Origin: a virus
Taxonomy: Duplodnaviria > Heunggongvirae > Uroviricota > Caudoviricetes
Length of the DNA stretch: 43,997 nt
Virus record (IMG/VR): IMGVR_UViG_2778261068_000003
Span: 1-43,997 of that record
Reading direction: 5' to 3' (one strand)
A model generated the notes under the pieces. The model ran no database searches and was not told where the DNA came from. It was given only the letters and a program-made list of their open reading frames with translations. The number at the start of each line of letters is the position of its first letter. Positions within the stretch are counted from its first letter, which is position 1. Positions 1-43,997 of the stretch are shown in pieces. The position numbers and the translations under genes are program-made.

Positions 1-201
1 ATGAATCGTAAAAGAGTGGCTTTGTTGCAAGCCATTGGCTCGGTTATAGCCCTGAGGCCAGCGGTCATTTCAGCAAATGGTATGCCAGCGAATCCAGTTG
101 CCGCTTTGCGTCAGGATGCTGCGGCTATCAGAAGCGATTTCCAAAGAGCAATGATATCCGTTAACGTTGAAAAACTGAACGATGCCAGATCAAAATTCTA
201 A
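1..201 (+). CDS. hypothetical small protein (66 aa); host or prophage-edge cargo
   Basis: Intact ORF with ATG at window position 1, followed by a hairpin plus T-run terminator; no motif recognised. Confidence 0.35.
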   Translation: MNRKRVALLQAIGSVIALRPAVISANGMPANPVAALRQDAAAIRSDFQRAMISVNVEKLNDARSKF

Positions 202-230
202 GCAGGAACCTGATCAAGATTAGTCTCCGA

Positions 231-256
231 ACCCCGGTTGATGCCGGGGTTTTGCA
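231..256 (+). terminator. Rho-independent terminator (possibly bidirectional)
   Basis: CCCCGG-TTGATG-CCGGGG stem-loop followed by TTTTG, between convergent ORFs 1..201 (+) and 261..815 (-). Confidence 0.5.
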
Positions 257-260
257 TTCA

Positions 261-815
261 TTAAAACCGCATCAACCGCTCCACCAGTTGTTCCTTACGG
301 GCAACTATCCAGCCTTGCTGTTCCAGATAAAACTTAAAACGCTCCAGGGTGCACACCATTGCGTCGGCTGGGACTTTTTCTGTGAACTCAATCTGACCGT
401 GGCTATTGAAATGGATCAGCAACGAGCAACCGGCAACTGATGTGGTTTGTGGCGATGCTGGAGGTTGTTTCTTATTGAAATAACAGTCTTCCAGTTTTTC
501 GAACACTTCCCACGCCTGATCGGTTTCCAGCATTTTGGCGTGGCGGGCTGCTCCGCGTTCTGTCCAGAGGATGAGCGAGCGGGTTTTGGGAGATATTTGT
601 GACTCTCTTAAAGATAGTCGCAAATTTTTTAGCTCCTCACCCACAATTTTGAAAAAGTGCTTTCCCTCAACAAAGCGATCCGAGTTGCGTTTGTGATTTT
701 GCTGAATGCGAATTGCTTCTGTACCGTAAAGCTGCGCCAAAAGTTCAGTGGTAATAACAGGGATCTGGTTATGAGTGATCGGGGAGAGAGTTTTAACAGA
801 GATTTGAGTTGTCAT
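261..815 (-). CDS. ORF6N/KilA-N-like DNA-binding domain protein (phage regulatory or antirepressor-like)
   Basis: N-terminal ...IPVITTELLAQLYGTEAIRIQQNHKRNSDRFVEGKHFFKIVGEELKNLR... resembles the ORF6N domain; GAGGG Shine-Dalgarno 6 nt before ATG at 815. Confidence 0.55.
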   Translation of the reverse strand: MTTQISVKTLSPITHNQIPVITTELLAQLYGTEAIRIQQNHKRNSDRFVEGKHFFKIVGEELKNLRLSLRESQISPKTRSLILWTERGAARHAKMLETDQAWEVFEKLEDCYFNKKQPPASPQTTSVAGCSLLIHFNSHGQIEFTEKVPADAMVCTLERFKFYLEQQGWIVARKEQLVERLMRF

Positions 816-1085
816 AATGACGCCCTCTGGTGGTTTCTAAATAACTCACCACCGACGACGCCAATCGTCTGGTGGTGAACTGTGCAGGGTTGGCGTAACC
901 GGGAAACCAACCGGCGCACCTTTCGGTGCCCCCACACAGCCCACCATAATTCAGATGTGCGTGCGCATACGACAATAAAAAACACGCTCGCGGCGTGTGT
1001 CTGTCGCGGTTTCTATCCGGGACGCCAATCCCGACGCCAGATTTTGCTGGCGTGCGCAGACTATAATCCCGGACGGTTATTTTTG

Positions 1086-2204
1086 TCAAATAACCAACTT
1101 AACCCATTCCTGACCACGGGTGTCGTTATAGCGATCGGTGGTTGCCTGGACTTTATGTCCCAGTAATGTTTTTGTATCGATACCCTGTGCCCGGTACAGC
1201 CGTTCTGACAGGGAGCGTTGTTCATGAAATGTTGGTGGTGTTTTTCCTGCTGGTGGAGTTATTCCTGCCAGATCCCGCGCTTTAGCAAAGTAGTCGCTAA
1301 GGTTATCTTTACTCATTGGTTTTGGTTGTTTCTGGTGCCGACTATGAATCAGGTATGGACTCAATATTCTGTCCCTGCATCCATCAATTACTTCCTTTAG
1401 CGATATCCCAATGGCATCACAGCGTAGTGTAAGCGGTAACGCCAGACGCATTCCGGTTTTTCCCTGGGTGATATGCAAGTGTTCGTTCCATACATCTGAA
1501 AAACGCATGTGGCAAATGTCATCGCGGCGCTGACCTGTAACAATCGCAATAAGCATTGCATTGCGGATAAAATGTTTTTCAGGCGTTGCGTTGTAAATTT
1601 TTTGCCAGTCTTCCAGAGTAAGTCTGGCTCTTGTCACTTTAGGGATCGGTTTACGGGTTGCCTCCGGGGGATTCCATCCGGGAGGAACTTCTCCAGCATG
1701 CTGCGCTTCTTTATATATATCAACCCACAATCCACGATTTACTTTTGCTGTACTGACCATGTCTTTATCCAGCCACTCATCCAGTATTAATGCAAAGTCT
1801 CTTACTTCCAGTTCTTTCAATGGGTGGTTTCCCAGACGGGAAACCAGGAATGCAGCCATTCGCGCTTTTTCTTTGTGAGTTGTAGCTGCAATATCTCCAT
1901 TTTTCAGTCGCGCGTCCTGTATTTTCAGATATCGATCAACCCATGCTTTTAATCTGATGCCCCGACGTTTTGTTGCTGACGGACTTTCATCAATTTTGCG
2001 CATGAAATATTCAGCTTCTGCTGCAGCTATTCGCTGATTGGCTGTGGTGGCGATTTTTTCTGCCTTATTTTTGTCTGTTCCGAGTCCGTGAAATTTTCCG
2101 GTTACAGGATTTTTATACTGGTAGTAAACTCTGCCGGTTCTGCGATCAAATTTTTCGTAAAGACCCGCTACATCAGTGCTGTTTTTTCGTGGCCTCGGTG
2201 ACAT
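1086..2204 (-). CDS. int: lambda-family tyrosine integrase
   Basis: 372 aa; N-terminal arm-binding-like region and C-terminal ...LLGHKVQATTDRYNDTRG... catalytic-tyrosine region; overlaps the 3' end of the xis-like gene as in lambdoid phages. Confidence 0.9.
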   Translation of the reverse strand: MSPRPRKNSTDVAGLYEKFDRRTGRVYYQYKNPVTGKFHGLGTDKNKAEKIATTANQRIAAAEAEYFMRKIDESPSATKRRGIRLKAWVDRYLKIQDARLKNGDIAATTHKEKARMAAFLVSRLGNHPLKELEVRDFALILDEWLDKDMVSTAKVNRGLWVDIYKEAQHAGEVPPGWNPPEATRKPIPKVTRARLTLEDWQKIYNATPEKHFIRNAMLIAIVTGQRRDDICHMRFSDVWNEHLHITQGKTGMRLALPLTLRCDAIGISLKEVIDGCRDRILSPYLIHSRHQKQPKPMSKDNLSDYFAKARDLAGITPPAGKTPPTFHEQRSLSERLYRAQGIDTKTLLGHKVQATTDRYNDTRGQEWVKLVI

Positions 2205-2451
2205 GAGTTAAAATCTCCTTTAGCGCGTCATCATCGCCAGTATGAATTTCCGGCGCAATTCCCGTTTCACCAGGTCCAACAAATACAGCCCGGCGATCTA
2301 TCAGCCAACGCCCACGAATTTTTTGTGGTCTTGGAACGATGTATCCCAGTTTTCCGTATTTCACCAGGGTAGTATTCGTTATTGGGAGGCTGAACCGTTT
2401 AGGTTTCCACTCGTCGAGCGTTATCAGGTACTGTTCGCTCATGGCTATCAC
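2173..2451 (-). CDS. xis: excisionase (Xis-like)
   Basis: Small ORF immediately upstream of and overlapping int; ...LITLDEWKPKRF...YIVPRPQKIRGRWLIDRRAV... resembles excisionase DNA-binding proteins; true start may be the Met at 2442. Confidence 0.65.
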   Translation of the reverse strand: MIAMSEQYLITLDEWKPKRFSLPITNTTLVKYGKLGYIVPRPQKIRGRWLIDRRAVFVGPGETGIAPEIHTGDDDALKEILTHVTEATKKQH

Positions 2452-2503
2452 TCCGGAAAGCGCCAGTTACAGAATACCAACCGCAACTGGCGACGGTTGA
2501 ACA

Positions 2504-4963
2504 TTAAAAATCAGCCTGACTCGGGAGCAGTTTTTGCCAGATAGCTGAAACGTATTTTGCCTGGTAACGGGCGTCATCAAGTGCATTGTGGCGCTCGCCT
2601 TCGAATGGAATAGCCGTTCTGGCATCGAAGTCCATGGCTCCTCCCAGTTCAACGATCGTGCGAACATCGCGATCATTGCAGTAGTGCCACGGGCAGGGGA
2701 TTCCCTGTCGTTCGTATGAACGGCGTAAAATTACGTTGTCGAAACTGGTTCCGTTGCTCCAGACCTGAACAAAAAACTCACCAGAGTTTTCGTCGATAAA
2801 TTCCCGTAATTGCAACAGTGCATCATCTAACGGGATTTCATCAGCCAGAATGGCAGACTGCGCTTCGCGCGATTGCTTCAGCCACCACTTAACGGTGTCC
2901 CTGTCAATGACACCGCCAGCAGTATCCAGATCGATGGTCTTACTGAATTCTGGCCCAATATTTCCGGTTTGCGGATCGAAAAATATTGCACCTATTGAGA
3001 TAACTGCAGCATCAGGATTTTTTCCCATGGTTTCCAGGTCGATCATCATATGAGTCCACATTCTGTTACTGGTGGATATGTATTTATGATGACCGTTCGC
3101 CGGAATTAGGGGATTTGCCGTCTCGCCAGTTTCATCACTGCTATTGCCATGCTGAGCGTCACCAGCGCTCTCCTTATGAGAATTCTCAGTGCTTTCCATT
3201 TTCTCCGAATCTTTTTCAGCCAGATTTTCTTCATCGAATGTTTCCTGATATGTTGTGTTACCCATAACAGGCCCGCAGTCCGGACATTTTCCACCGCCAG
3301 CCCGGCTGCAAGTATTGCAGCTTTTTTCAGTCCCCTGTTGTGCTGTTGGCTCTGACTGTTGCACTTCTGGCCCATTTTGTTGCGCATCCGGACTGTTTTG
3401 TTCCGCTTTCTGGTCGTTCTGTTCCGTTTCTTGCTGATTCTGGTACAGAGAATCGCGAGTCTGGATCCCCTCAACCCACTTCGGATCATTCGGGTCGCTA
3501 ATTCCTTCAACAAATTCACCACGTGATGCAGCAAGCACTTTGTCGGCATCAGGCAGATTTTCTGTCTCCATTTTTTTATTTGTTTCGACCGTGTTAACTT
3601 TTACCGGCTCTGGTTGTTCAGAGTTTTGTGCGACACTGGTATTTTGCGGTAAGCCTGTGTATGTGCCATTTTTTCGGGCGACATATTCTTCTTTGGTGAT
3701 TTCAGTAGCCCCGGCAGCCAGCGCCTTATTCAGACCAGACAGTTTGTTTGCGCGACCGTATTTTTCGCCGTCCTTATCGGTAAAGAGGAAGTAGAACGGT
3801 CCTTCACGCTCTACAGATGGTTCAGCTTCCAGTGCGCTTTCATTTTTTTGGGTGCCAGATACTTCTGTTTCCACTGCATCAGTTTGTGTTGCTGACGACC
3901 GGAGAACATCAGCAGGACTCTGATCCGTTTCTTCATCTTCAAACACGCCTTTTGTCGTCAGGTATTCAGTAATGTATTTGTTCAGTGCCACAGGGTCTTT
4001 GTGAATGTCGATCGGACGTTCACGGACAAGGCCAAAAATAGTCTGGCGGCTGTAGCGAAGCGCATCAGGCTGTTTGCGCATTGATGCGGAGATGCGCTTC
4101 CAGTCTTCGCGATCTTTGTCGATAACTTCATTTTTTGCCCAGCGATGGATGCTGCCGTCAATGTTTCCGGCATCAATATCGCCAGGCCAGAGAGCGTAGG
4201 CCAGTTCTTCATCCAGCGTTTTCCATGTCTGCCTGTATTCGCGACGAATGGCGGCAGTGACTGGGTTGATTTTTGCTACTGAGTTTTCAGTGTTCTGCCG
4301 GTTAACTTTGGCGCGGGCGAGATCAACAACAGAAGTATATGCTCCACCTTCTTTGCGCTCCTTTTCCATGCGTTTTTTACGTTCGAGAAAATACGCCTGA
4401 ATGTCGGGCCATTTGGCTGTTGGTTTTAAATCACGTCTGGCATCGTTGATGTACTCAGTCTGACGCTCAGGATACATGGCGTTAATTTCTTTAGTCCTGA
4501 TAATTGCTTCAGTGAGGTGTCCATCAAAAGTCGTCATCTCGTCATCGCCGAGAAGCCCGCTTGCATTGATGACCATATCCACGGTGATGTTTTCATGTGT
4601 ACCGAACCTGACAAGGACAGCAGCCCGCTTGTCTTCAGATAACTGATTAAAGTTAACAGTTTCTGTATCCGGTTCAGGGTCGACCGGAACAAAGGAAGCC
4701 GACTCCTCATTCCAGCGGTTTTCCTGCATATATTCGGAATCCCAGGAATCGAGAGCAGGGCGGGCCATGCCGGGTTTATCCTCGCAGACAAGAAATTTAT
4801 AAGCACAGTCCTGAGCTTCCGGGTATTGTTCCAGAAATAACCAGCTAAATTTGGCTCTTGCCCGGCGTTCGTCGCCTGCTTCAATGGCAGTGGCCACAGG
4901 TCTGGCGCCTTCTGCTGTTGCCTGTTCGTCCGGAATGGCGGCGCAAATAAAGACTTTACTCAT
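2504..4963 (-). CDS. large phage exonuclease-domain protein (C-terminal DnaQ/DEDD-like 3'-5' exonuclease fold)
   Basis: 819 aa; C-terminal MIDLETMG...SNGTSFDNVIL...HNALDDA resembles DEDDh exonuclease motifs; central CxxC...CPDC zinc-ribbon-like motif and a Q/E-rich low-complexity segment; sits at the exo/recombination position. Confidence 0.7.
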   Translation of the reverse strand: MSKVFICAAIPDEQATAEGARPVATAIEAGDERRARAKFSWLFLEQYPEAQDCAYKFLVCEDKPGMARPALDSWDSEYMQENRWNEESASFVPVDPEPDTETVNFNQLSEDKRAAVLVRFGTHENITVDMVINASGLLGDDEMTTFDGHLTEAIIRTKEINAMYPERQTEYINDARRDLKPTAKWPDIQAYFLERKKRMEKERKEGGAYTSVVDLARAKVNRQNTENSVAKINPVTAAIRREYRQTWKTLDEELAYALWPGDIDAGNIDGSIHRWAKNEVIDKDREDWKRISASMRKQPDALRYSRQTIFGLVRERPIDIHKDPVALNKYITEYLTTKGVFEDEETDQSPADVLRSSATQTDAVETEVSGTQKNESALEAEPSVEREGPFYFLFTDKDGEKYGRANKLSGLNKALAAGATEITKEEYVARKNGTYTGLPQNTSVAQNSEQPEPVKVNTVETNKKMETENLPDADKVLAASRGEFVEGISDPNDPKWVEGIQTRDSLYQNQQETEQNDQKAEQNSPDAQQNGPEVQQSEPTAQQGTEKSCNTCSRAGGGKCPDCGPVMGNTTYQETFDEENLAEKDSEKMESTENSHKESAGDAQHGNSSDETGETANPLIPANGHHKYISTSNRMWTHMMIDLETMGKNPDAAVISIGAIFFDPQTGNIGPEFSKTIDLDTAGGVIDRDTVKWWLKQSREAQSAILADEIPLDDALLQLREFIDENSGEFFVQVWSNGTSFDNVILRRSYERQGIPCPWHYCNDRDVRTIVELGGAMDFDARTAIPFEGERHNALDDARYQAKYVSAIWQKLLPSQADF

Positions 4964-5079
4964 TTTGTTTTAACCTCATTACAGATTTAAGGATGAACAA
5001 ATCCCTGCCATTGCTGACATAAATTTATGTTGAATATTTTTATCTGATAAAAATATTGTGTTGATTCAGGCGCTGATAC

Positions 5080-5319
5080 TCACCATGATTCTGCTTTTAC
5101 AGGCAAGCCATCACGACCGAGAAATATTTTGATCATATAATCGCTGATACATTTTTGCTCACCAACACTTCTGATATATAACCTGTGTCTGCATATATCG
5201 TTTGCAGAGGCGATATATGTTTGCCCTTTATGAATAACATAATCGCCGGGGGTGACGCACTGACGTGGTATTTCATCGGTTCCGAAATGGTGTGCGATCA
5301 TAATTATCTCCATTTTCAC
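5080..5319 (-). CDS. hypothetical early-left protein
   Basis: 79-aa ORF on the early-left strand downstream of the exonuclease gene; no motif recognised. Confidence 0.35.
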
Positions 5320-5779
5320 AAATGAATTTTGTCGATGCGGTGCCTGGTGCCTCCAGGTGACGTTAACCAGTTAACAATTAACGCCGGATACAGAGAACCC
5401 ACCCATAAGAACCAATACGGAAGTCAACTGGCCTTTTTAACTGTTCCGCGTGCGCTGAGCCGCATTCACCGCATCACAAAATTCACTTTAAAAAGGGCGG
5501 ACATCAGCCAGCAATGAAACTGATGCCGCCAAAAGGTAATCAACATGGGTTGTTGCAGCGGGGTTGTCACTCAGGCGTATGGTCAACCTGACAACCCGGT
5601 GTCCTCAACAGGGGGAAGGAATAACCCCGCCATACGTACCGCCGTGCGCTTTCGCGTTATGCCCTGACTTTTCAGGGATATATCCTTTCAGTAAACTGTC
5701 AGTGCCGGATTCTTATCCGTGTCCGGCGCACGACCACATGTGGCAGCGTGTTGGTCTCCATTTTTAACCCAGAATCTCA

Positions 5780-5977
5780 ATGGAGAATAAAATGTCAGAC
5801 AAGTTAATTAACCCATTTACCTATCCATCTGTTGCAGCTTTGAACTTAACAGTTGAGTTAATTCGGGCTGGCAAAATGTCATCCCCTTCAGAGGCGGCTA
5901 ATTCAGTTATTACAATTTGCAATATATTAAAAGAAGAAAAACAAGCCGCTATGGAGAAGACTGATAAAGAGCAATAA
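5780..5977 (+). CDS. hypothetical small protein (65 aa)
   Basis: ORF with GGAGAA Shine-Dalgarno 5 nt upstream of ATG; opposite in orientation to the surrounding early-left genes; overlaps a possible 53-aa minus-strand ORF. Confidence 0.35.
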   Translation: MENKMSDKLINPFTYPSVAALNLTVELIRAGKMSSPSEAANSVITICNILKEEKQAAMEKTDKEQ

Positions 5978-6248
5978 AGGCTTCTCTGATTTCTTGAGCC
6001 AGTTTTTTAGCTGGCTCTACCTTTTCTGTCTCCCCGTTCAAAATGAGAGATTTCAGTGTTTCTGCGGCGATTTTCTGAGTGTCTGGAGGTAAATCTTTAA
6101 ATTCCATCTTTAACCCCGTTAGTCGATAGATTTTGTCGAACTGGAAAGCGCCTGTTTAAACTCACTGAAGCTGAGAGCTTCTTCGCCTTCGGCAAGGCCT
6201 TCGAAGTATTCTTCGTAAGCCTTTTTCATGATTGCGTCGAAATCCATA

Positions 6249-6404
6249 TCACTCACCTGAATTTCTTTCCAGCCAGCGACGTGCGCCAGTTTCGGTTTTA
6301 AACGTTTTGCTTTTGGTATACGTCATCGCGGTGAATGTGCCGTCCTGGTTGGGAAACACGCCGTATGCCAGAGATTCGTTGTTGCCAAGATCGATAGTAT
6401 CCAT
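6249..6404 (-). CDS. hypothetical small early protein (51 aa from internal Met)
   Basis: Minus-strand ORF immediately downstream of the leftward operator region; GAGG Shine-Dalgarno 6 nt before ATG at 6404; the ORF track extends it to 6497. Confidence 0.35.
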   Translation of the reverse strand: MDTIDLGNNESLAYGVFPNQDGTFTAMTYTKSKTFKTETGARRWLERNSGE

Positions 6405-6486
6405 GCTGACCTCATCTCCCCTTAACGCTGGGGTAGCGGAACTGTTTGCTGAGAACACCGTGCGGTGTCTTGATGAATGATAATTT

Positions 6487-6534
6487 AGTTTTCTCATGTT
6501 AATTGGTCAAGTGTTTTTGATGAGAAAACTCAAT
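6487..6534. promoter_or_regulatory. operator-like inverted repeats (OL-like) downstream of the repressor gene
   Basis: AGTTTTCTCAT ... ATGAGAAAACTCA inverted repeat in an AT-rich intergenic region; the same TGAGAAAACTCA motif recurs at 7053..7066. Confidence 0.5.
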
Positions 6535-6594
6535 ATTTAATGCAAAATAAAGCCAATACATTGAAATGTAAGGCTTTAAAATTTGTGAATGGGG

Positions 6595-7002
6595 TTATTG
6601 ATGTTTGTTACGTTTGCGAGCTTCTAGTAGCTCGGTGAATAGGCGATTAAAATTCTCAACGCGGGCACGGAGTTCGCTGATTTGTGCTTGCTGCTCTGAT
6701 TTTGGAAGTGCGCGATACAATCGCAACATCTCCAACTCATCTTCCGATAAGTCTAAGGCGCTGTTGAGTGCAACTGGTGGATCTGGTGTTTTATCCTCGT
6801 CACCAAACAGTATCCAAGTTGGTGAACATTGCAATACCTCAGCCAGGCGATGCAAATTTTGCCCACGCGGGGCTGTATGGTCGCTTTCCCATAGTGAAAT
6901 TGATGAGCCAGATACGCCAGCAGCTTTGCTTAAATCGTTTTGACTTAAACCAACCTGTTTGCGTCTTTCTCTAATTCGTTGACCTAAAGTTTTCTCGTTC
7001 AT
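6595..7002 (-). CDS. DicA-like HTH (XRE family) prophage repressor
   Basis: ...LGQRIRERRKQVGLSQNDLSKAAGVSGSSISLWE...LQCSPTWILFGDEDK... closely resembles E. coli DicA; start placed at MNEKTL (7002) because the longer ORF start at 7053 would overlap the operator. Confidence 0.85.
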   Translation of the reverse strand: MNEKTLGQRIRERRKQVGLSQNDLSKAAGVSGSSISLWESDHTAPRGQNLHRLAEVLQCSPTWILFGDEDKTPDPPVALNSALDLSEDELEMLRLYRALPKSEQQAQISELRARVENFNRLFTELLEARKRNKHQ

Positions 7003-7024
7003 ATTTAGATATCTTAATAACCCT

Positions 7025-7066
7025 TGACTTGAGATTCCTTGAGTGATTACCATTGAGAAAACTCAA
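7025..7066. promoter_or_regulatory. divergent promoter/operator region (OR-like) between repressor and cro-like genes
   Basis: TTGACT -35-like hexamer and repeated TTGAG half-sites, including TTGAGAAAACTCAA at 7053..7066, just upstream of the GGAGG Shine-Dalgarno of the cro-like gene. Confidence 0.5.
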
Positions 7067-7079
7067 TTTTGGAGGGGCG

Positions 7080-7307
7080 ATGTTTAAATCAGACGTAATT
7101 AATTTTTATGGGACGAAAGCCAAAGTAGCGAAAGCTGCTGGTGTTGATCCATCTGCTGTTTCTCAATGGGGGGCACTGGTTCCTGAAGGTCGCGCGATGC
7201 GCCTGCAAGAGGCATCCGGCGGGGAACTTCAGTACGACCCCAAAGTTTATGACGAGTATCGTAAGGCAAAGCGGGCGGGGCGGTTGAACAATGAAAATCA
7301 CCCCTGA
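7080..7307 (+). CDS. Cro-like/YdaS-like small HTH regulator
   Basis: 75 aa from the ATG at 7080, with GGAGG at 7071..7075; ...FYGTKAKVAKAAGVDPSAVSQW... HTH; divergent from the repressor as in the Rac racR-ydaS arrangement. Confidence 0.7.
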   Translation: MFKSDVINFYGTKAKVAKAAGVDPSAVSQWGALVPEGRAMRLQEASGGELQYDPKVYDEYRKAKRAGRLNNENHP

Positions 7308-7812
7308 ACAGGTTTGTGAGGCTCTGGATGCCTGGGTATGCCGACCAGGAATGACACAGGAGCAGGCGACAATATTAATCACGGAAGCATTCTGGGCTCT
7401 GAAAGAACGCCCGAACATCGCTGTTCAACGTGTCACGTTTGATGATGGCGCGGTTGATCAACGGGCACTGGGCGTTAACCGGGTAAAGATATTCGAACGC
7501 TGGAAAGCTATCGACACCAGGGATAAGCGTGAAAAATTCACGGCGTTGATTCCGGCAATTATGGAGGCTATCCGGATAAGTGATTTCAGGTTGTATCGTG
7601 AAATTACTGACGCAAAAAGCATTACATACATGATCGCCGGGCTAAACAAAGAATATGGCGACGTGGTGGAGTCAGGTCTGCTTTTTGCAGATCCGGCTGT
7701 TGTGGATCGTGAAACCGACGAACTTATAGAAAAAGCCATTGCTTTCAAGCGTGCGTATCGTCAGCAATATCAACAAAAAGCCGGATGGAATTATGAGTCT
7801 TCTGTTTGCTGA
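7291..7812 (+). CDS. CII-like/YdaT-family regulator
   Basis: 173-aa ORF immediately downstream of the cro-like gene, at the position of lambda cII / Rac ydaT; the family assignment is by position and general resemblance only. Confidence 0.5.
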   Translation: MKITPEQVCEALDAWVCRPGMTQEQATILITEAFWALKERPNIAVQRVTFDDGAVDQRALGVNRVKIFERWKAIDTRDKREKFTALIPAIMEAIRISDFRLYREITDAKSITYMIAGLNKEYGDVVESGLLFADPAVVDRETDELIEKAIAFKRAYRQQYQQKAGWNYESSVC

Positions 7813-8758
7813 ACGCCCACTGGTTATTAACACGCATCTGGCGATGAAAATTGGCCTGAATGAAGCCATTGTGCTGCAGCAGCTGCATTACTGGTTGAGA
7901 GATACCAGTTCCGGTATGGAATGTGGCGGGGTTCGCTGGATTTATAACACAACGGAACAATGGCTGGAACAGTTCCCGTTCTGGTCAGAGTCAACGTTAA
8001 AACGCGCGTTTGCAAGTCTGAAAACGCTGGGGCTTTTGCGTTGCGAAAAGCTCAACAAATCAAAGCGTGATATGACTAATTTTTACACGATTAATTACGA
8101 GAGTGAGCTTTTAGATGGTGGCAAAGTGAGCGAATCCATCAGGTCAAAATGCACCGCTCCATCAGGTCAAAATGACACGATGGAAGAGGTCAAAATGGCA
8201 CGCTCCATTGGTTCAAAACGACCCAATGTCATCGGGTCAAAATGGCCCGATGATCTTACAGAGAATACAACAGAGATTACTACAGAGAATAAAAACACTT
8301 CTCGTCCGGAAGCTTCGCAACCAGACATGCAGACGGCTGAACAGGATTTTTTAACCCGACACCCTGACGCGGTTGTATTCAGTGCGAAAAAACGCCAGTG
8401 GGGCAGCCAGGAAGATTTAGCGTGTGCGCAGTGGATCTGGGGACGAATCGTGAGTCTTTACGAGCAGGCTGCCAGCGATGATGGCGAAATCATGCGACCG
8501 AAAGAACCAAACTGGACCGCGTGGGCCAATGACGTGCGCACAATGCGGATGCTGGATGGCAGAAGCCACAGACAAATTTGCGAAATGTTTGGGCGGGTAC
8601 AGCGGGATCCATTCTGGGTAAAAAACATCATGAGCCCGTCAAAGCTCCGCGAAAAATGGGACGAACTGGTCATCCGCCTGGGGCGTTCACCTGTACAGCG
8701 TTGTGTGAATCATATTTCTGAACCGGACACCGAAATTCCATCGGGGTTCAGGGGGTAA
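7793..8758 (+). CDS. phage replication initiation protein (O-like replisome organiser)
   Basis: Start at MSLLFAERPLVINTHLAMKIG (7793); iterons lie inside the gene as in lambda O; followed directly by the DnaC-like loader. Confidence 0.7.
   Translation: MSLLFAERPLVINTHLAMKIGLNEAIVLQQLHYWLRDTSSGMECGGVRWIYNTTEQWLEQFPFWSESTLKRAFASLKTLGLLRCEKLNKSKRDMTNFYTINYESELLDGGKVSESIRSKCTAPSGQNDTMEEVKMARSIGSKRPNVIGSKWPDDLTENTTEITTENKNTSRPEASQPDMQTAEQDFLTRHPDAVVFSAKKRQWGSQEDLACAQWIWGRIVSLYEQAASDDGEIMRPKEPNWTAWANDVRTMRMLDGRSHRQICEMFGRVQRDPFWVKNIMSPSKLREKWDELVIRLGRSPVQRCVNHISEPDTEIPSGFRG
8137..8247. repeat. replication origin iterons (5 direct repeats, ~23 bp spacing)
   Basis: (C)AGGTCAAAATG(G/A)-like repeats starting near 8143, 8165, 8188, 8211 and 8236, inside the O-like gene. 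Confidence 0.6.
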
Positions 8759-8764
8759 CGAGCT

Positions 8765-9511
8765 GTGAAAAATATTGCGACAGGCGGCGTTCTTGAACGT
8801 ATCCGCAGACTGACCCCGCCACATGTAACCGCTCCATTCAGAACGGTGGCGGAGTGGCGCGAGTGGCAGCTTGCCGAAGGCCAGAAACGTAGCGAGGAGA
8901 TCAACCGCCTGAATCGTCAGTTGCGGGTGGAAAAAATTCTGAATCGCTCAGGCATCCAGCCGTTGCACCGTAAATGCTCGTTTGCGAATTACCAGGTGCA
9001 GAACGACGGCCAGCGATACGCGTTAAGCCAGGCAAAATCCATCGCAGATGAACTGATGACCGGGTGTACAAATTTTGCGTTCAGTGGAAAACCTGGTACC
9101 GGGAAAAACCATCTGGCGGCAGCTATCGGGAACCGACTGCTGAAAGAAGGACAGACAGTGATTGTGGTTACTGTGGCTGATGTCATGAGCGCCCTGCACG
9201 CCAGCTATGACGAAGGACAATCAGGCGAAAAATTTTTGCGGGAACTGTGCGAAGTGGATCTGCTGGTTCTTGATGAAATTGGCATTCAGCGCGAGACGAA
9301 AAATGAGCAGGTGGTGCTGCATCAGATTGTTGATCGCCGGACAGCATCGATGCGCAGCATGGGGATGCTGACAAACCTGAACTATGAGGCCATGAAAACG
9401 TTGCTCGGCGAGCGGATTATGGATCGCATGACCATGAACGGTGGGCGCTGGGTGACGTTTAACTGGGAAAGCTGGCGCCCTAATGTCGTCCAGCCAGGAA
9501 TTACGAAATAA
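8765..9511 (+). CDS. DnaC-like replicative helicase loader (AAA+ ATPase)
   Basis: Co-linear similarity to E. coli DnaC (...NRSGIQPLHRKCSFANYQV...FSGKPGTGKNHLAAAIGN...DLLVLDEIG...MLTNLNYEAM...); GTG start with a G-rich Shine-Dalgarno. Confidence 0.9.
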   Translation: MKNIATGGVLERIRRLTPPHVTAPFRTVAEWREWQLAEGQKRSEEINRLNRQLRVEKILNRSGIQPLHRKCSFANYQVQNDGQRYALSQAKSIADELMTGCTNFAFSGKPGTGKNHLAAAIGNRLLKEGQTVIVVTVADVMSALHASYDEGQSGEKFLRELCEVDLLVLDEIGIQRETKNEQVVLHQIVDRRTASMRSMGMLTNLNYEAMKTLLGERIMDRMTMNGGRWVTFNWESWRPNVVQPGITK

Positions 9512-9532
9512 CTTTACCAGGAGAAAAATTTA

Positions 9533-10294
9533 ATGGAGACCGTTTTTGACGCACTGAAAGCAATGGGAAAAGCCACGTCGGTAGAACTGGCCGCACGACT
9601 TGATGTCAGTCGTGAAGAAGTGCTGAACGAGCTGTGGGAACTGAAAAAGGCTGGCTTCGTTGATAAAAGCGTATACACCTGGCGTGTGGCTGATAACAAC
9701 GTTCAGCAGGAACAGCCAGCGCAGGCGGAACTGCCGGAAGAAACCACCACAGCAACAGTGACGAAAATTTTGGAGAACGATTTAACGGCGATGATTGAAC
9801 AACGCGGACCACAATCGGAGGATGAACTGGCTACGCTGTTCGGTACCACATCCCGCAAAGTGACTTCAACGCTGGCAATGGCAATAAGCAAAGGGCGTCT
9901 GATTCGCGTAAACCAGAGCGGTAAATTCCGTTACTGCCTGCCGGGCGATGATTTACCAGCAGAACCGAAAGCTGCATTGGTAACGAAAAATGATGGTAAA
10001 GCCTTTCCTCAGCCAGCAGGTGTTACGTTACCAGCGTCGGAAGTTGCAATACAGGAAGAAATTAAAACAGAAACTGTGGCGGACATTGTGCAGTCGTTGC
10101 CATCGTTCACCAAAACGCGAGCCGATGGCCTGACTTTACCATCGCTGCATCTGGCAAACCGCGAACTGCGCCGGGCAAAAAACCGTGTCCAGAAGTGGGA
10201 GCGCGTCTGCGCAGCACTGCGGGAGCTGAATAAACACCGGGATATTGTCCGACAGATTGTCGATTCCACCAGTCGCGTTGTATCGGAAAAGTGA
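9533..10294 (+). CDS. hypothetical protein with N-terminal winged-helix-like domain
   Basis: 253 aa; N-terminal ...[29 protein letters not shown]... resembles a wHTH; remainder unassigned. Confidence 0.5.
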
Positions 10295-10301
10295 GGCGTT
10301 T

Positions 10302-10718
10302 ATGGGAAACGTTTTTACACCTGAATACAGGGAACAACTGAAGGCGCGTATTGTGGAACTGGTACGCAGAGACGGGAGGAAAACGCGTAAGCAACTGGAA
10401 GATGAAACCGGAGCTACCAGACACCTGATAGAAGTTCTGGCGAAAGAGCTGGTGGTCAGTGGTGCAGTATATGGTTCGGGGCATGGGATATTTCCTTCGG
10501 AGCAGGCGCGTAAGGACTGGATAAAGGCCTGCAAAAAAATGTCGAAAGGTACAGCGAAAAAGAAGAGCGACCCCGACCTGATTTATTCATTGCCGGATGG
10601 TGAAATACGCCGTTACAACAGGCGACAGAACATAATCTGTCGCGAGTGCCGTCAGAGCGAAGCTATGCAGCGTGTGCTGGCTTTCTGGAGGGGCGATTTT
10701 CAGGAGGTGGTGGCGTGA
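10302..10718 (+). CDS. hypothetical phage protein
   Basis: Start at MGNVF with GAGG Shine-Dalgarno; C-terminal Cys/Arg-rich segment; function unknown. Confidence 0.5.
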   Translation: MGNVFTPEYREQLKARIVELVRRDGRKTRKQLEDETGATRHLIEVLAKELVVSGAVYGSGHGIFPSEQARKDWIKACKKMSKGTAKKKSDPDLIYSLPDGEIRRYNRRQNIICRECRQSEAMQRVLAFWRGDFQEVVA

Positions 10719-11020
10719 GGGTGAGAGTTTATATTGCCGGTCCAATGACCGGGTATAAAAATTTCAACCGTGAGGCGTTCCACAAGGCGGAAGAGGAACT
10801 GAAACGGGAAGGGCATACAGTCTTAAACCCGGCAGTACTTCCTGACGGGCTGACACAGCCACACTACATGGATATTTGCATGGCAATGATTCGTTGTGTG
10901 GATGCGATTTACATGCTGAAAGGCTGGCAGCGGTCAGCAGGCGCTAAGGCAGAACTGGCGCTGGCGGGGAAACTGGGGCATGCAGTTATTTTCCAAGAGG
11001 CAAACAGTGAGCAAGATTGA
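10715..11020 (+). CDS. DUF4406-like (nucleoside 2-deoxyribosyltransferase-like fold) protein
   Basis: VYIAGPMTGYKNFNREAFHKAEEELKREGHTVLNP... is characteristic of the family; GTG start overlapping the upstream stop, with GGAGG 7 nt upstream. Confidence 0.55.
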   Translation: MRVRVYIAGPMTGYKNFNREAFHKAEEELKREGHTVLNPAVLPDGLTQPHYMDICMAMIRCVDAIYMLKGWQRSAGAKAELALAGKLGHAVIFQEANSEQD

Positions 11021-12118: not shown

Positions 12119-12306
12119 AAACGATTTGCGGGAAAAGGACAGTTAAGTAAAATCGCTGCGGGTGCTTGAGGCTATCTGTCTCAGGCATGAACACCAACGG
12201 CAGATAGATAAAAGCCCCACCCGACTATAAATCGAAGTGAGGCCCCTATATGCTCGACACATATAGATTGCCTCTTACGGACCGAAAGGTCAAGGAGAAG
12301 CAGGCT

Positions 12307-12462
12307 ATGAAGCAGCAAAAGGCGATGTTAATCGCCCTGATCGTCATCTGTATTACCGTCGTAGTGACGGCACTGGTAACGAGGAAAGATCTCTGCGAGG
12401 TACGAATCCGTACCGGACAGACGGAGGTCGCTGTCTTCACAGCTTACGAATCTGAGGAGTAA
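12307..12462 (+). CDS. hok: Hok/Gef-family type I toxin
   Basis: MKQQKAMLIALIVICITVVVTALVTRKDLCEVRIRTGQTEVAVFTAYESEE matches the Hok family pattern; AAGGAG Shine-Dalgarno; an in-frame upstream extension (12250) is mok-like; stem-loop directly after the stop. Confidence 0.85.
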   Translation: MKQQKAMLIALIVICITVVVTALVTRKDLCEVRIRTGQTEVAVFTAYESEE

Positions 12463-41527: not shown

Positions 41528-42612
41528 ATGAATACTGTCCTGATTTCAGTCTGTCAGCAGAAGGTGAAGACATTACGCAGGTAATAAAACGGGGGCTTGC
41601 AGAACTGCATTACACGGATAATGGTGCAGCAACAAAACAGGCGGATGAGCTGGTGATAACGCTGTTCAGCGAAACCCTGTCATTACCTCCCAAAGGGGCG
41701 CTGCTGCGTCTGGGACTGGGTTTTAACGGAAAACTGGTAAATAAAGGGACGTTCACCGTCTGCCAGGTGGCAAGCAGTGGTCCACCCCGCAGAATCACTG
41801 TCTCAGCCACATCGGCCCCCATGAATGCATCAAAACATGGTGCGGATGTGACCGCGCTTAAAAACCGTGCTTTCAGCGATATTACGCTGGGGGACCTGGT
41901 GAAAACAATCGCCACTGAAAATAATCTGGTGGCGCGGGTCTCACCGGCGCTGGCGAAAATCCGTATTCCGTGGGTGATGCAGTCATCAGAATCTGATGCG
42001 TCGCTGTTATCGCGGCTTGCAGCCATGTACGGGGCCACCAGTAAACCGACGAACGGTTACTGGTTGTTCCTGGAGTATGGCGCCTCACAGAGTCCGTCCG
42101 GCAGGGATGCACCAGCTCTGACCATTACACCGGATATGGTTTCGGGCTGGAGTTATACAGAGGGAGAGCGCGGAGGGGCATCCGGCGTGAGTGGTGAAAA
42201 AAAAGGTAAGGTTGGGGTCAGATATTTTGAACAGAGTACGGGACGGACGCGTGAGCATACCGTTGATGTGGAGTCCACAGATAAGCGTCATCCGTTTACC
42301 CAGGCAGATAAAGGTGCGGCAGAGCACAGCGCACAGGCAAAGGTCAGGCGGGTACAGAAATCCGGACGCCGGATGACAATAACACTGCCCTGCAGGCCAG
42401 CGCTGCTGAAAGCGGGGGCGGAAATGCGTTTTATCACGCAGGGATTTGGGGTACGTGAGGATCATAACTGGCAGGCAGAGTCGGTGGAGTTCTCACTGGT
42501 ACCAGGCCAGGGATTTACACTGAATCTGTCGCTGTCCACAGATATTTCCGCGAAAGGACAGGAGTCAGGGAAGAAAAAAGCCGATAAAAAAGGGGTGAAT
42601 TATTATGGATAA
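41518..42612 (+). CDS. tail protein D (P2 gpD-like late control/tail protein)
   Basis: 364-aa last gene of the tail operon, at the gpD position. Confidence 0.8.
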   Translation: MELNEYCPDFSLSAEGEDITQVIKRGLAELHYTDNGAATKQADELVITLFSETLSLPPKGALLRLGLGFNGKLVNKGTFTVCQVASSGPPRRITVSATSAPMNASKHGADVTALKNRAFSDITLGDLVKTIATENNLVARVSPALAKIRIPWVMQSSESDASLLSRLAAMYGATSKPTNGYWLFLEYGASQSPSGRDAPALTITPDMVSGWSYTEGERGGASGVSGEKKGKVGVRYFEQSTGRTREHTVDVESTDKRHPFTQADKGAAEHSAQAKVRRVQKSGRRMTITLPCRPALLKAGAEMRFITQGFGVREDHNWQAESVEFSLVPGQGFTLNLSLSTDISAKGQESGKKKADKKGVNYYG

Positions 42613-42816
42613 AAAACGTGCCCGGCAGAGATTTATTCTGTTGCAGGGCACGTTCTTAAAACTATTCTGGCTATTGAGTAGTCAGGGTGGAAGCATCGGG
42701 ATTATGCGCAATTCCCGAAAAAATCTTTCTCCAAAACCAGAACGCAATTGATTGATTTTGACAGGATTTATAATACCGTTACTTTAAAAAGCAAAACCCC
42801 CTCAAAACAAACATAA

Positions 42817-43098
42817 TACATTGAATATAAAGGATTAATCATCTATTTCGCTAACCTTCATATCTGTAAGGCGAAAGTCAGAATTGCCGATCGCACGTTT
42901 ACCACGTTTGGCTCGCGCGGCGGAGTGGTGTTTGTGATCAGCGGGACGTGGCAACTGGGTGATAAACTGTTGACCTCCGACCAGGGCGCGTGCTGGTACG
43001 ATGGCAAGCACACCCTGCGGCTTTTGCAATCGCAAGGTCAATTGCTGTTCAGTGAAATTAGCTGGCGTCCTGGTCATTCGCCGGAGTTCGTTCAGTAA
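42817..43098 (+). pseudogene. start-less 3' fragment of a host ORF at the prophage right junction
   Basis: Frame is open from the stop at 42814..42816 to TAA at 43096..43098 with no ATG before a late GTG; encodes ...[76 protein letters not shown] (beta-rich). Confidence 0.4.
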
Positions 43099-43125
43099 TT
43101 TTTTCCTAAAAGATAAAAGGGGATG

Positions 43126-43161
43126 CTGTGTCCGATAATATTGGCATTATCAGACACAGCT
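43126..43161. terminator. bidirectional hairpin terminator downstream of nadE
   Basis: Near-perfect inverted repeat GCTGTGTCCGATAATATTGGCATTATCAGACACAGC between the convergent nadE and the host ORF fragment. Confidence 0.5.
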
Positions 43162-43169
43162 ATGGGGCG

Positions 43170-43997
43170 TTATTTCTTCCAGAAATTATCAAAAACCGTA
43201 ATCGGCGGGCGGCGTTTGTGTTCGGTTTTCAGATACCAGTTTTCAATCGTTCTGGCGACCTGTTCCGGTACGCTTTTCCCTTCCAGGTAGTCATCGATAT
43301 TTTCATAGGTCACGCCAAGCGCGACTTCATCCGGCAGTGACGGGCGGTCATCTTCGAGATCTGCCGTTGGTGCTTTCTTATAGAGATGTTCCGGGCAACC
43401 TAATGCTGCCAGCAGCTGTTTACCCTGACGTTTGTTCAGACGATACAGCGGATTAATGTCCGTACCGCCATCGCCATATTTAGTGAAGAATCCGGTAATG
43501 GCTTCTGCTGCATGATCGGTGCCGACCACGACGCCATTGGTCATGCCTGCAATGCTGTATTGTGCTTTCATCCGCTCGCGCGCTTTTTCGTTGCCGCGAA
43601 CAAAATCACTTAATTCAATGCCAGCTTCGCGTAGCGCCTGTTCGCTGGCCAATACCGCACCTTTGATATTAACGGTTAACACACGATCTGGCTGAATAAA
43701 GGCAATCGCATCCTGGCAATCTTGCTCATCGGCCTGAACACCGTAAGGAAGGCGTACGGCAATAAATTGCAGTGATTCGTTGCCGCTCTCCTGACGCAGT
43801 TCATTAATCGCCATCTGGCACAGTTTTCCAGCAAGGGTGGAGTCCTGACCGCCGCTAATACCAAGAACCAGTGATTTAATGAACGGGTAAGTTTGCAGAT
43901 AGCTTTTTAGAAAATCGACGCTGCGGCGAATTTCTTCTTCAGCATTAATCTGTGGTTTTGCGCCCAGCGCCTTTATTATTTGTTGCTGTAATGTCAT
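43170..43997 (-). CDS. nadE: NH3-dependent NAD+ synthetase
   Basis: Complete 275-aa ORF with the PP-loop motif (...[18 protein letters not shown]...) and overall NadE character; start codon at the window end. Confidence 0.95.

Follow-up and report, generated by a model that had tools for sequence, protein, structure and literature searches.

A lambda-type prophage junction within the ves gene of Escherichia albertii

The right-hand part of the DNA analyzed here, a window of 43,997 nucleotides, is interpreted with a probability of about 0.93 as the attR of a complete-looking prophage of ~43.1 kb (counting one core) that entered the ves gene of Escherichia albertii by lambda-type integration. 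The evidence comprises the two prophage-host junctions, a shared core, the empty site, both halves of ves, the domains of the integrase and the conservation of the phage arms. The initial annotation had placed a right prophage junction in a host gene convergent with nadE; the junction is where homology to prophage-free relatives stops, at 42855, and the gene is ves. A literature search, limited in reach, found no paper on ves as a prophage target, and this use of the gene is apparently undocumented; the mechanism itself is of a known kind. The features discussed below are collected in Table 1.

Table 1. Features of the prophage, its att sites and the flanking host DNA (window coordinates unless a contig is named).
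Feature	Position or sequence	Strand	Basis or remark
66-aa phage gene	1..201	+	Function unassigned; last gene before the attL arm; gene order in L011-L018
Lambda-type tyrosine integrase	1086..2204	-	Pfam Arm-DNA-bind_1 (E 3.5e-22) and Phage_integrase (E 3e-19)
Excisionase	2173..2451	-	Pfam PF07825 Exc, E 8e-5; E. coli homologues annotated excisionase
Tape measure gene	39206..40840		Before gpD
gpU	40837..41349		Before gpD
gpX	41309..41527		Before gpD
gpD-type tail/baseplate hub gene	41518..42612	+	Pfam PF05954 Phage_GPD; last gene of the late operon
Hairpin directly after the gpD stop	42615..42654	+	Probable tail-operon terminator
Phage arm of attR (P arm in lambda nomenclature)	42655..42854		AT-rich, GC 27-41%
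Candidate arm-type integrase site, TCTCCAAAAC	42728..42737	+	10-mer, invariant in the three-way arm alignment
Exact IHF consensus, AATCAATCAATTG	42745..42757	-	Consensus WATCAANNNNTTR; invariant in the arm alignment
attR core, CCTTCATATCTGTAAGG	42855..42871		CCTTC / 7-bp overlap ATATCTG (putative) / TAAGG
attL	...ACACG CCTTGATATCTGTAAGG TGGAGCAC...		
attB	...ACACG CCTTGATATCTGTAAGG CGAAAGTC...		
attR	...GCTAA CCTTCATATCTGTAAGG CGAAAGTC...		
ves 3' remnant, host-derived	42872..43098	+	Residues ~116-191 plus stop; no start codon
ves-nadE spacer, as compared	43099..43169; L001 10829..10899; L020 2399..3286		
Host palindrome, 36 bp, between convergent ves and nadE	43125..43160		Probable shared terminator
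nadE (NAD synthetase), host flank	43170..43997	-	Pfam NAD_synthase

The site before integration is preserved in close relatives. An exact look-up of the NadE protein retrieved nine prophage-free chromosomes with the gene order nadE, ves (191 amino acids, convergent), spy, astE, and homology of the window to these nine empty E. albertii loci, which amounts to 98.9-99.9% identity over 42855..43997, stops exactly at the junction. Three of the comparator accessions are named Escherichia albertii (PMC10673567, PMC9861504), and the exact NadE protein of the window is found in many genomes of this species. Among 185,579 species representatives (one genome each), a 27-mer of attB that covers the core plus flanking bases on the right was found in E. 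albertii NBRC 107761 alone. The equivalent place in ves of E. coli K-12 reads CCTGG-ATGTCTG-TAAGG. Within the window, no tRNA or tmRNA target was found.

Alignment of the nine empty sites with both junctions defines a 17-bp core, CCTT[C/G]ATATCTGTAAGG, which is the overlap of the window-to-attB and attL-to-attB homologies. In this three-way alignment, attB matches attL up to the 17-bp segment and attR from the same segment onward. The core copies are identical at 16-17 of 17 positions across 9 attB, 8 attL and 7 attR sequences and read as inverted half-sites, CCTTC and TAAGG (reverse complement CCTTA), around ATATCTG. The variable position is position 5, which is G in every attB and attL and C in every attR of this set and falls outside the central 7 bp. 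As this mismatch segregates by side, the strands are expected to be exchanged to the right of it, which fits a putative overlap of 7 bp, ATATCTG. The attR site had initially been located near 42817..42845, and the core actually lies 10 bp to the right of that interval.

The window itself ends before the left junction, and attL was taken from identical or near-identical contigs. In contig L013, which is 100% identical to window positions 1..10815, the attL core lies 258-274 bp to the left of position 1. A look-up with the ORF6N protein of the window retrieved eight contigs, L013 among them, that carry int, ORF6N, the 66-aa gene, the 5' part of ves, spy and astE, so the suggestion that the true attL lies outside the window was borne out. 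At attL, in the contigs identical to the window, ves codons 1-115 are fused to phage DNA, with spy next. The hybrid ORF formed there matches Ves positions 1-117 and the remnant at attR matches positions 110-191; taken together, the two halves account for all of ves and have only the core in common, and hence nothing was deleted. One sample, SRR9671737, holds both an attL (L016) and an attR (L029).

These findings bear on the possibility, raised in part in the initial annotation, that insertion went along with loss or replacement of 5' ves sequence, or that illegitimate recombination formed the junction, with no matching attL in existence. Inside the window there is indeed neither 5' sequence of ves nor a second copy of the core, even with three mismatches allowed; this single occurrence accounts for the failure to find a left repeat in 816..1086 or 200..260, neither of which is an att site. 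This possibility is nevertheless very unlikely, given that contigs with exactly the sequence of the window's left end run into the 115 intact 5' codons of ves and spy, with the same 17-bp core at the joint. The 172-aa fusion ORF at attL (L013 10904..11422; also in L011, L015, L017 and L018) is called a 'HutD-family' gene in some assemblies and left uncalled in others; this 'HutD' gene is an annotation artefact of the junction.

On the right side, the start-less frame 42817..43098 (+) described initially as a C-terminal fragment is present, and it represents the 3' end of ves, a HutD-family gene with a product of 191 aa in its intact form. It is preceded by TAA at 42814..42816 and stays open for 93 codons, and its first ATG, GTG or TTG is the GTG at 42925. 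The first 38 nt of the frame (42817..42854), attributed to the host gene at the time, are phage-arm DNA. From 42855 on, the DNA shares 98.7-99.9% identity with uninterrupted ves loci of E. albertii. The interrupted gene was identified from two kinds of match: E. coli genomes match window positions 42860..43101 at ~87%, annotated 'environmental stress-induced protein Ves', and the NCBIfam Ves equivalog aligns frame residues 12-93 with model positions 110-191 of 191 (E 3e-44). The remnant scores 150.9 bits against the cut-off of 292 of this model (NF008488), as compared with 396 bits for an intact comparator; it is a gene remnant and not a member protein of the Ves/HutD family (NF008488, PF05962). 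A Pfam search with the fragment alone gave no match. Solved structures related to Ves are the HutD proteins 5FCC and 1YLL.

The open frame and its internal GTG could be taken for a real small gene, either over all of 42817..43098 or as the 57-aa ORF 42925..43098 that starts at the GTG. This is highly improbable: nine genomes have a 191-aa gene whose 3' part shares 99% identity with the DNA from 42855, the Ves profile is matched in colinear order, the upstream 38 nt belong to the phage arm, and no promoter-like site was found in 42300..43300. The initial annotation had considered that prophage-free comparators might hold a complete small gene here; they hold intact ves instead. The ORF 42925..43098 was accordingly rejected as a gene, its DNA matching the 3' part of ves. 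An antisense ORF of 80 aa over the remnant (42835..43077, -) is called in several public assemblies and looks spurious.

Beyond the remnant, the 36-bp palindrome reported initially at the 3' end of nadE was confirmed. It starts 26 nt past the ves stop and 9 nt past the nadE stop and folds on both strands, with a dG of -25.1 kcal/mol and a z of -6.3 on the nadE strand, where it is followed by CCCCUUUUAUCUUUU. A consensus terminator scan did not call the palindrome, whose U tract is short or displaced; it probably terminates nadE and, at the empty site, ves. The palindrome also occurs in prophage-free genomes. In E. coli K-12, cho (excinuclease) sits between ves and nadE; the E. albertii locus has no cho there, and a 71-bp spacer containing the palindrome takes its place. 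Since the spacer with the palindrome belongs to the E. albertii locus and has no counterpart in that of E. coli, the palindrome is host DNA older than the prophage.

On the phage side of the core, the AT-rich stretch noted before was found again, with a GC content of 27-35% in 42700..42900 as against 52-60% in the flanking genes. The attR arm (42655..42854) has no homology to the empty site and no exact match among species-representative genomes, and an arm adjoining ves was seen in no E. coli genome matched. Its core-proximal part, 42719..42854, is shared with the prophage of contig L004 and is 80-89% identical to E. coli prophages at potB. It holds one clear arm-type site only. In the attL arm, outside the window, an AT-rich spacer of 42 bp is followed by three tandem copies of the arm-type 10-mer (TCTCCAAAAY/TCCCCAAAAC) with at most one mismatch, at +43..+76 past the core. 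Thus repeated arm-type sites are found in both arms, one in attR and three in attL, and are conserved in sister phages. The motif CTCCAAAA has only 3 occurrences on both strands of the 44-kb window, and exact matches to the IHF consensus number 2 in the whole window, one of them in the attR arm. Judging from their conservation and placement, these motifs are candidate binding sites of Int and IHF.

The L004 contig (10829..20828; E. albertii 2014EL-1348, CP126908) carries a different prophage at the ves site, with the same attR core and a related arm. That prophage encodes lambda-type tail genes J, I, K and L, an Ail/Lom gene and a tail fibre gene. The presence of a related arm at the same site indicates that the integration module has been exchanged between unrelated phage bodies.

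The prophage in the window encodes both a lambda-type integrase and an excisionase (Table 1), and the most probable course of events is as follows. Int recombined attP with the 17-bp site in ves codons 111-116, the host partner reading CCTTG-ATATCTG-TAAGG and the phage partner CCTTC-ATATCTG-TAAGG. The resulting attR joins gpD, the terminator-like hairpin behind it and the ~200-bp AT-rich arm to the last ~76-80 codons of ves, which have lost their promoter and start codon. The resulting attL joins the first 115 codons to the int-side arm with its three tandem candidate sites, creating the 172-aa hybrid ORF with an unrelated tail of 57 residues. The gene is thus split at codon 115/116, and loss of its function in the lysogen is most likely; an intact ves would return on excision by Int and Xis. 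The predicted excision joints are ...GCTAACCTTCATATCTGTAAGGTGGAGCAC... for attP and ...ACACGCCTTGATATCTGTAAGGCGAAAG... for the restored attB. A ves-type attP (arm, CCTTCATATCTGTAAGG, arm) had no match in viral or metagenome contigs, and the excised form is undocumented. Mu-like transposition, with the 17-bp repeat as a target-site duplication, would likewise place the insertion mid-gene between direct repeats, but it can be dismissed as having almost no probability, for the two repeat copies differ consistently by side (C next to the phage partner's arm in attR, G in the host version), the different prophage in L004 uses the same site, a lambda-type integrase and excisionase are encoded and no transposase, and the contiguous attP of sister phages already contains the core.

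The remainder of the prophage combines a lambdoid early region and head with a P2-type contractile tail. Upstream of the tail genes listed in Table 1 lie genes for sheath, baseplate, fibre, capsid, portal and terminase, and a megablast search of a phage collection with the right end gave no match to a named relative. The hairpin after gpD, initially described as a 7-bp stem with a 22-nt loop at 42619..42654, is real but differs in form and is stronger: a 9-bp outer stem (42615..42623 with 42646..42654) encloses an inner helix, with a dG of -23.1 kcal/mol and a z of -5.2, and none of 200 shuffled sequences folds as well. The hairpin is conserved in other contigs with the same tail module and is followed only by UUCUU; a simple terminator scan did not call it. 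It probably ends the late operon. A 48-aa ORF crossing the hairpin (42605..42751, +) is called as a gene in several public assemblies and looks spurious. It was considered as an ogr-like gene and rejected: it matches no family, it extends across the hairpin, and a 22-nt indel in sister arms breaks its frame.

At the other end of the prophage, Rfam models match the minus strand between int and an ORF6N (antirepressor-like) gene (261..815), over 868..1066: C4 antisense RNA at 868..951, IsrK at 977..1053 and the c4 a1b1 target element at 1014..1066. This cassette is of the P1/P7 'immunity I' type or the Gifsy isrK-anrP type and lies as cargo in the stretch from int to attL. The structure of the region in which att repeats had been sought is explained by it, and 816..1086, which encodes the C4 antisense RNA, IsrK and the a1b1 targets, was rejected as an att region. 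An Rfam match to sok antitoxin RNA (105 bits) at 12160..12309 (+) indicates a hok/sok-type toxin-antitoxin locus inside the prophage.

In phage lambda, attP and attB are recombined with the participation of Int, Xis and IHF; H' and P'1-P'3 lie on the int side, and the distal arm carries two arm-type sites. The integrase in the window resembles that of lambda in its N-terminal arm-binding domain, and in the short core putative inverted half-sites likewise flank a 7-bp central region. The three tandem repeats that follow an AT-rich spacer in the int-proximal arm recall H' and P'1-P'3. The distal arm also has an arm-type site and an IHF consensus, comparable to a P site and an H site of lambda, and the prophage order is the same: attL, int, xis ... 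late genes, attR. In contrast to lambda, the attR arm shows a single clear arm-type site, the core and arm-site sequences are unrelated, the target is inside a coding sequence rather than intergenic as between gal and bio, int is separated from the arm by two cargo genes and an antisense-RNA locus, and the tail is of the P2-type contractile kind. Phage 21 and e14 integrate into icd, which is kept functional by a replacement 3' end that they bring along. The prophage described here similarly sits inside a protein-coding host gene, but the 57-aa phage tail of its ves hybrid has no similarity to Ves and the gene is split.

Close relatives of this integration module were found at the potB/potC locus of E. 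coli. The integrase shares 97.6-97.9% amino acid identity with the integrases of E. coli prophages at potB/potC (~97.7%) and 97.0-97.3% with those next to an intact attP in viral contigs L025 and L027. In E. coli, the attR-type arm (80-89%) adjoins potB, and the int-side module, with the 66-aa gene, an ORF6N or DUF2335 gene, int and xis, adjoins potC at ~90-95% nucleotide identity. In L025 and L027, the potB-type attP is intact, with arm, CCTTCTTATTCATAAGG, arm and int adjacent. Compared with these prophages (strains EC11, A8 and ETEC1730; L025, L027), the one in the window has arms that are ~90% identical, with the arm-type repeats and the IHF site, and the same half-sites and int-side cargo (66-aa gene, ORF6N). 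The potB-type and ves-type cores differ at 4 of 7 central base pairs (TTATTCA vs ATATCTG) between identical half-sites CCTTC and TAAGG. The targets also differ in kind: the relatives enter potB at its 3' end, and the final codons (...VSELDD*) and stop of that gene come from the arm, whereas ves is entered mid-gene and nothing is restored. In the E. coli sister prophages (L019 4117..4148; L021 2192..2219), a distance of 11 nt separates the core from the start codon of potC downstream, and potB takes its final 20 nt and its stop from the arm, so that PotB has 287 aa.

A vestige of the potB arrangement is carried in the window. On the minus strand, the tail KVSEIDD* can still be read at 42835.., as the 3' end of the antisense ORF mentioned above, where it has no role, and this points to potB as the ancestral target of the module. 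The odds are about even that the ves module is a natural retargeted derivative of the E. coli potB/potC module; the four substitutions, all in the putative overlap, coincide with a change to another gene in another species. A switch from potB to ves could have arisen by secondary-site integration followed by an excision that kept the host overlap. The same attR-type arm joins other sequences after CCTTC in further contigs. In L030 (~4100..4350), the arm joins ATTCATTAAAACC (CCTTC-ATTCATT) next to a Rha gene and trpA/trpB, and in L023 (5324..5420) and L026 it joins TTATCGGAAACTGG (CCTTC-TTATCGG), which has at most 7 copies per E. coli genome. The joints in L023/L026 and L030 may be further target variants or mosaic joints, and they hint at a family that hops between targets by changes in the overlap.

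This is an ordinary lambda-type prophage junction that involves no new mechanism, and its definition serves mainly annotation: the prophage boundaries are fixed, with phage DNA extending from 257 bp to the left of the window to 42854 and the right core at 42855..42871, and the annotated ORFs 42605..42751, 42835..43077 and 42925..43098 are not genes. For the host, it means that these E. albertii lysogens carry ves in two pieces. The one point of mild interest is that a potB-type module has apparently been retargeted to ves by changes confined to the overlap. With nearly the same integrase and arms and a different overlap, the ves-type and potB-type modules form a natural test case that bears on the rule that overlap identity, and not integrase specificity, selects the chromosomal target. 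If the retargeting is true, it would parallel in nature what the 'site affinity' (saf) mutants of lambda show in the laboratory.
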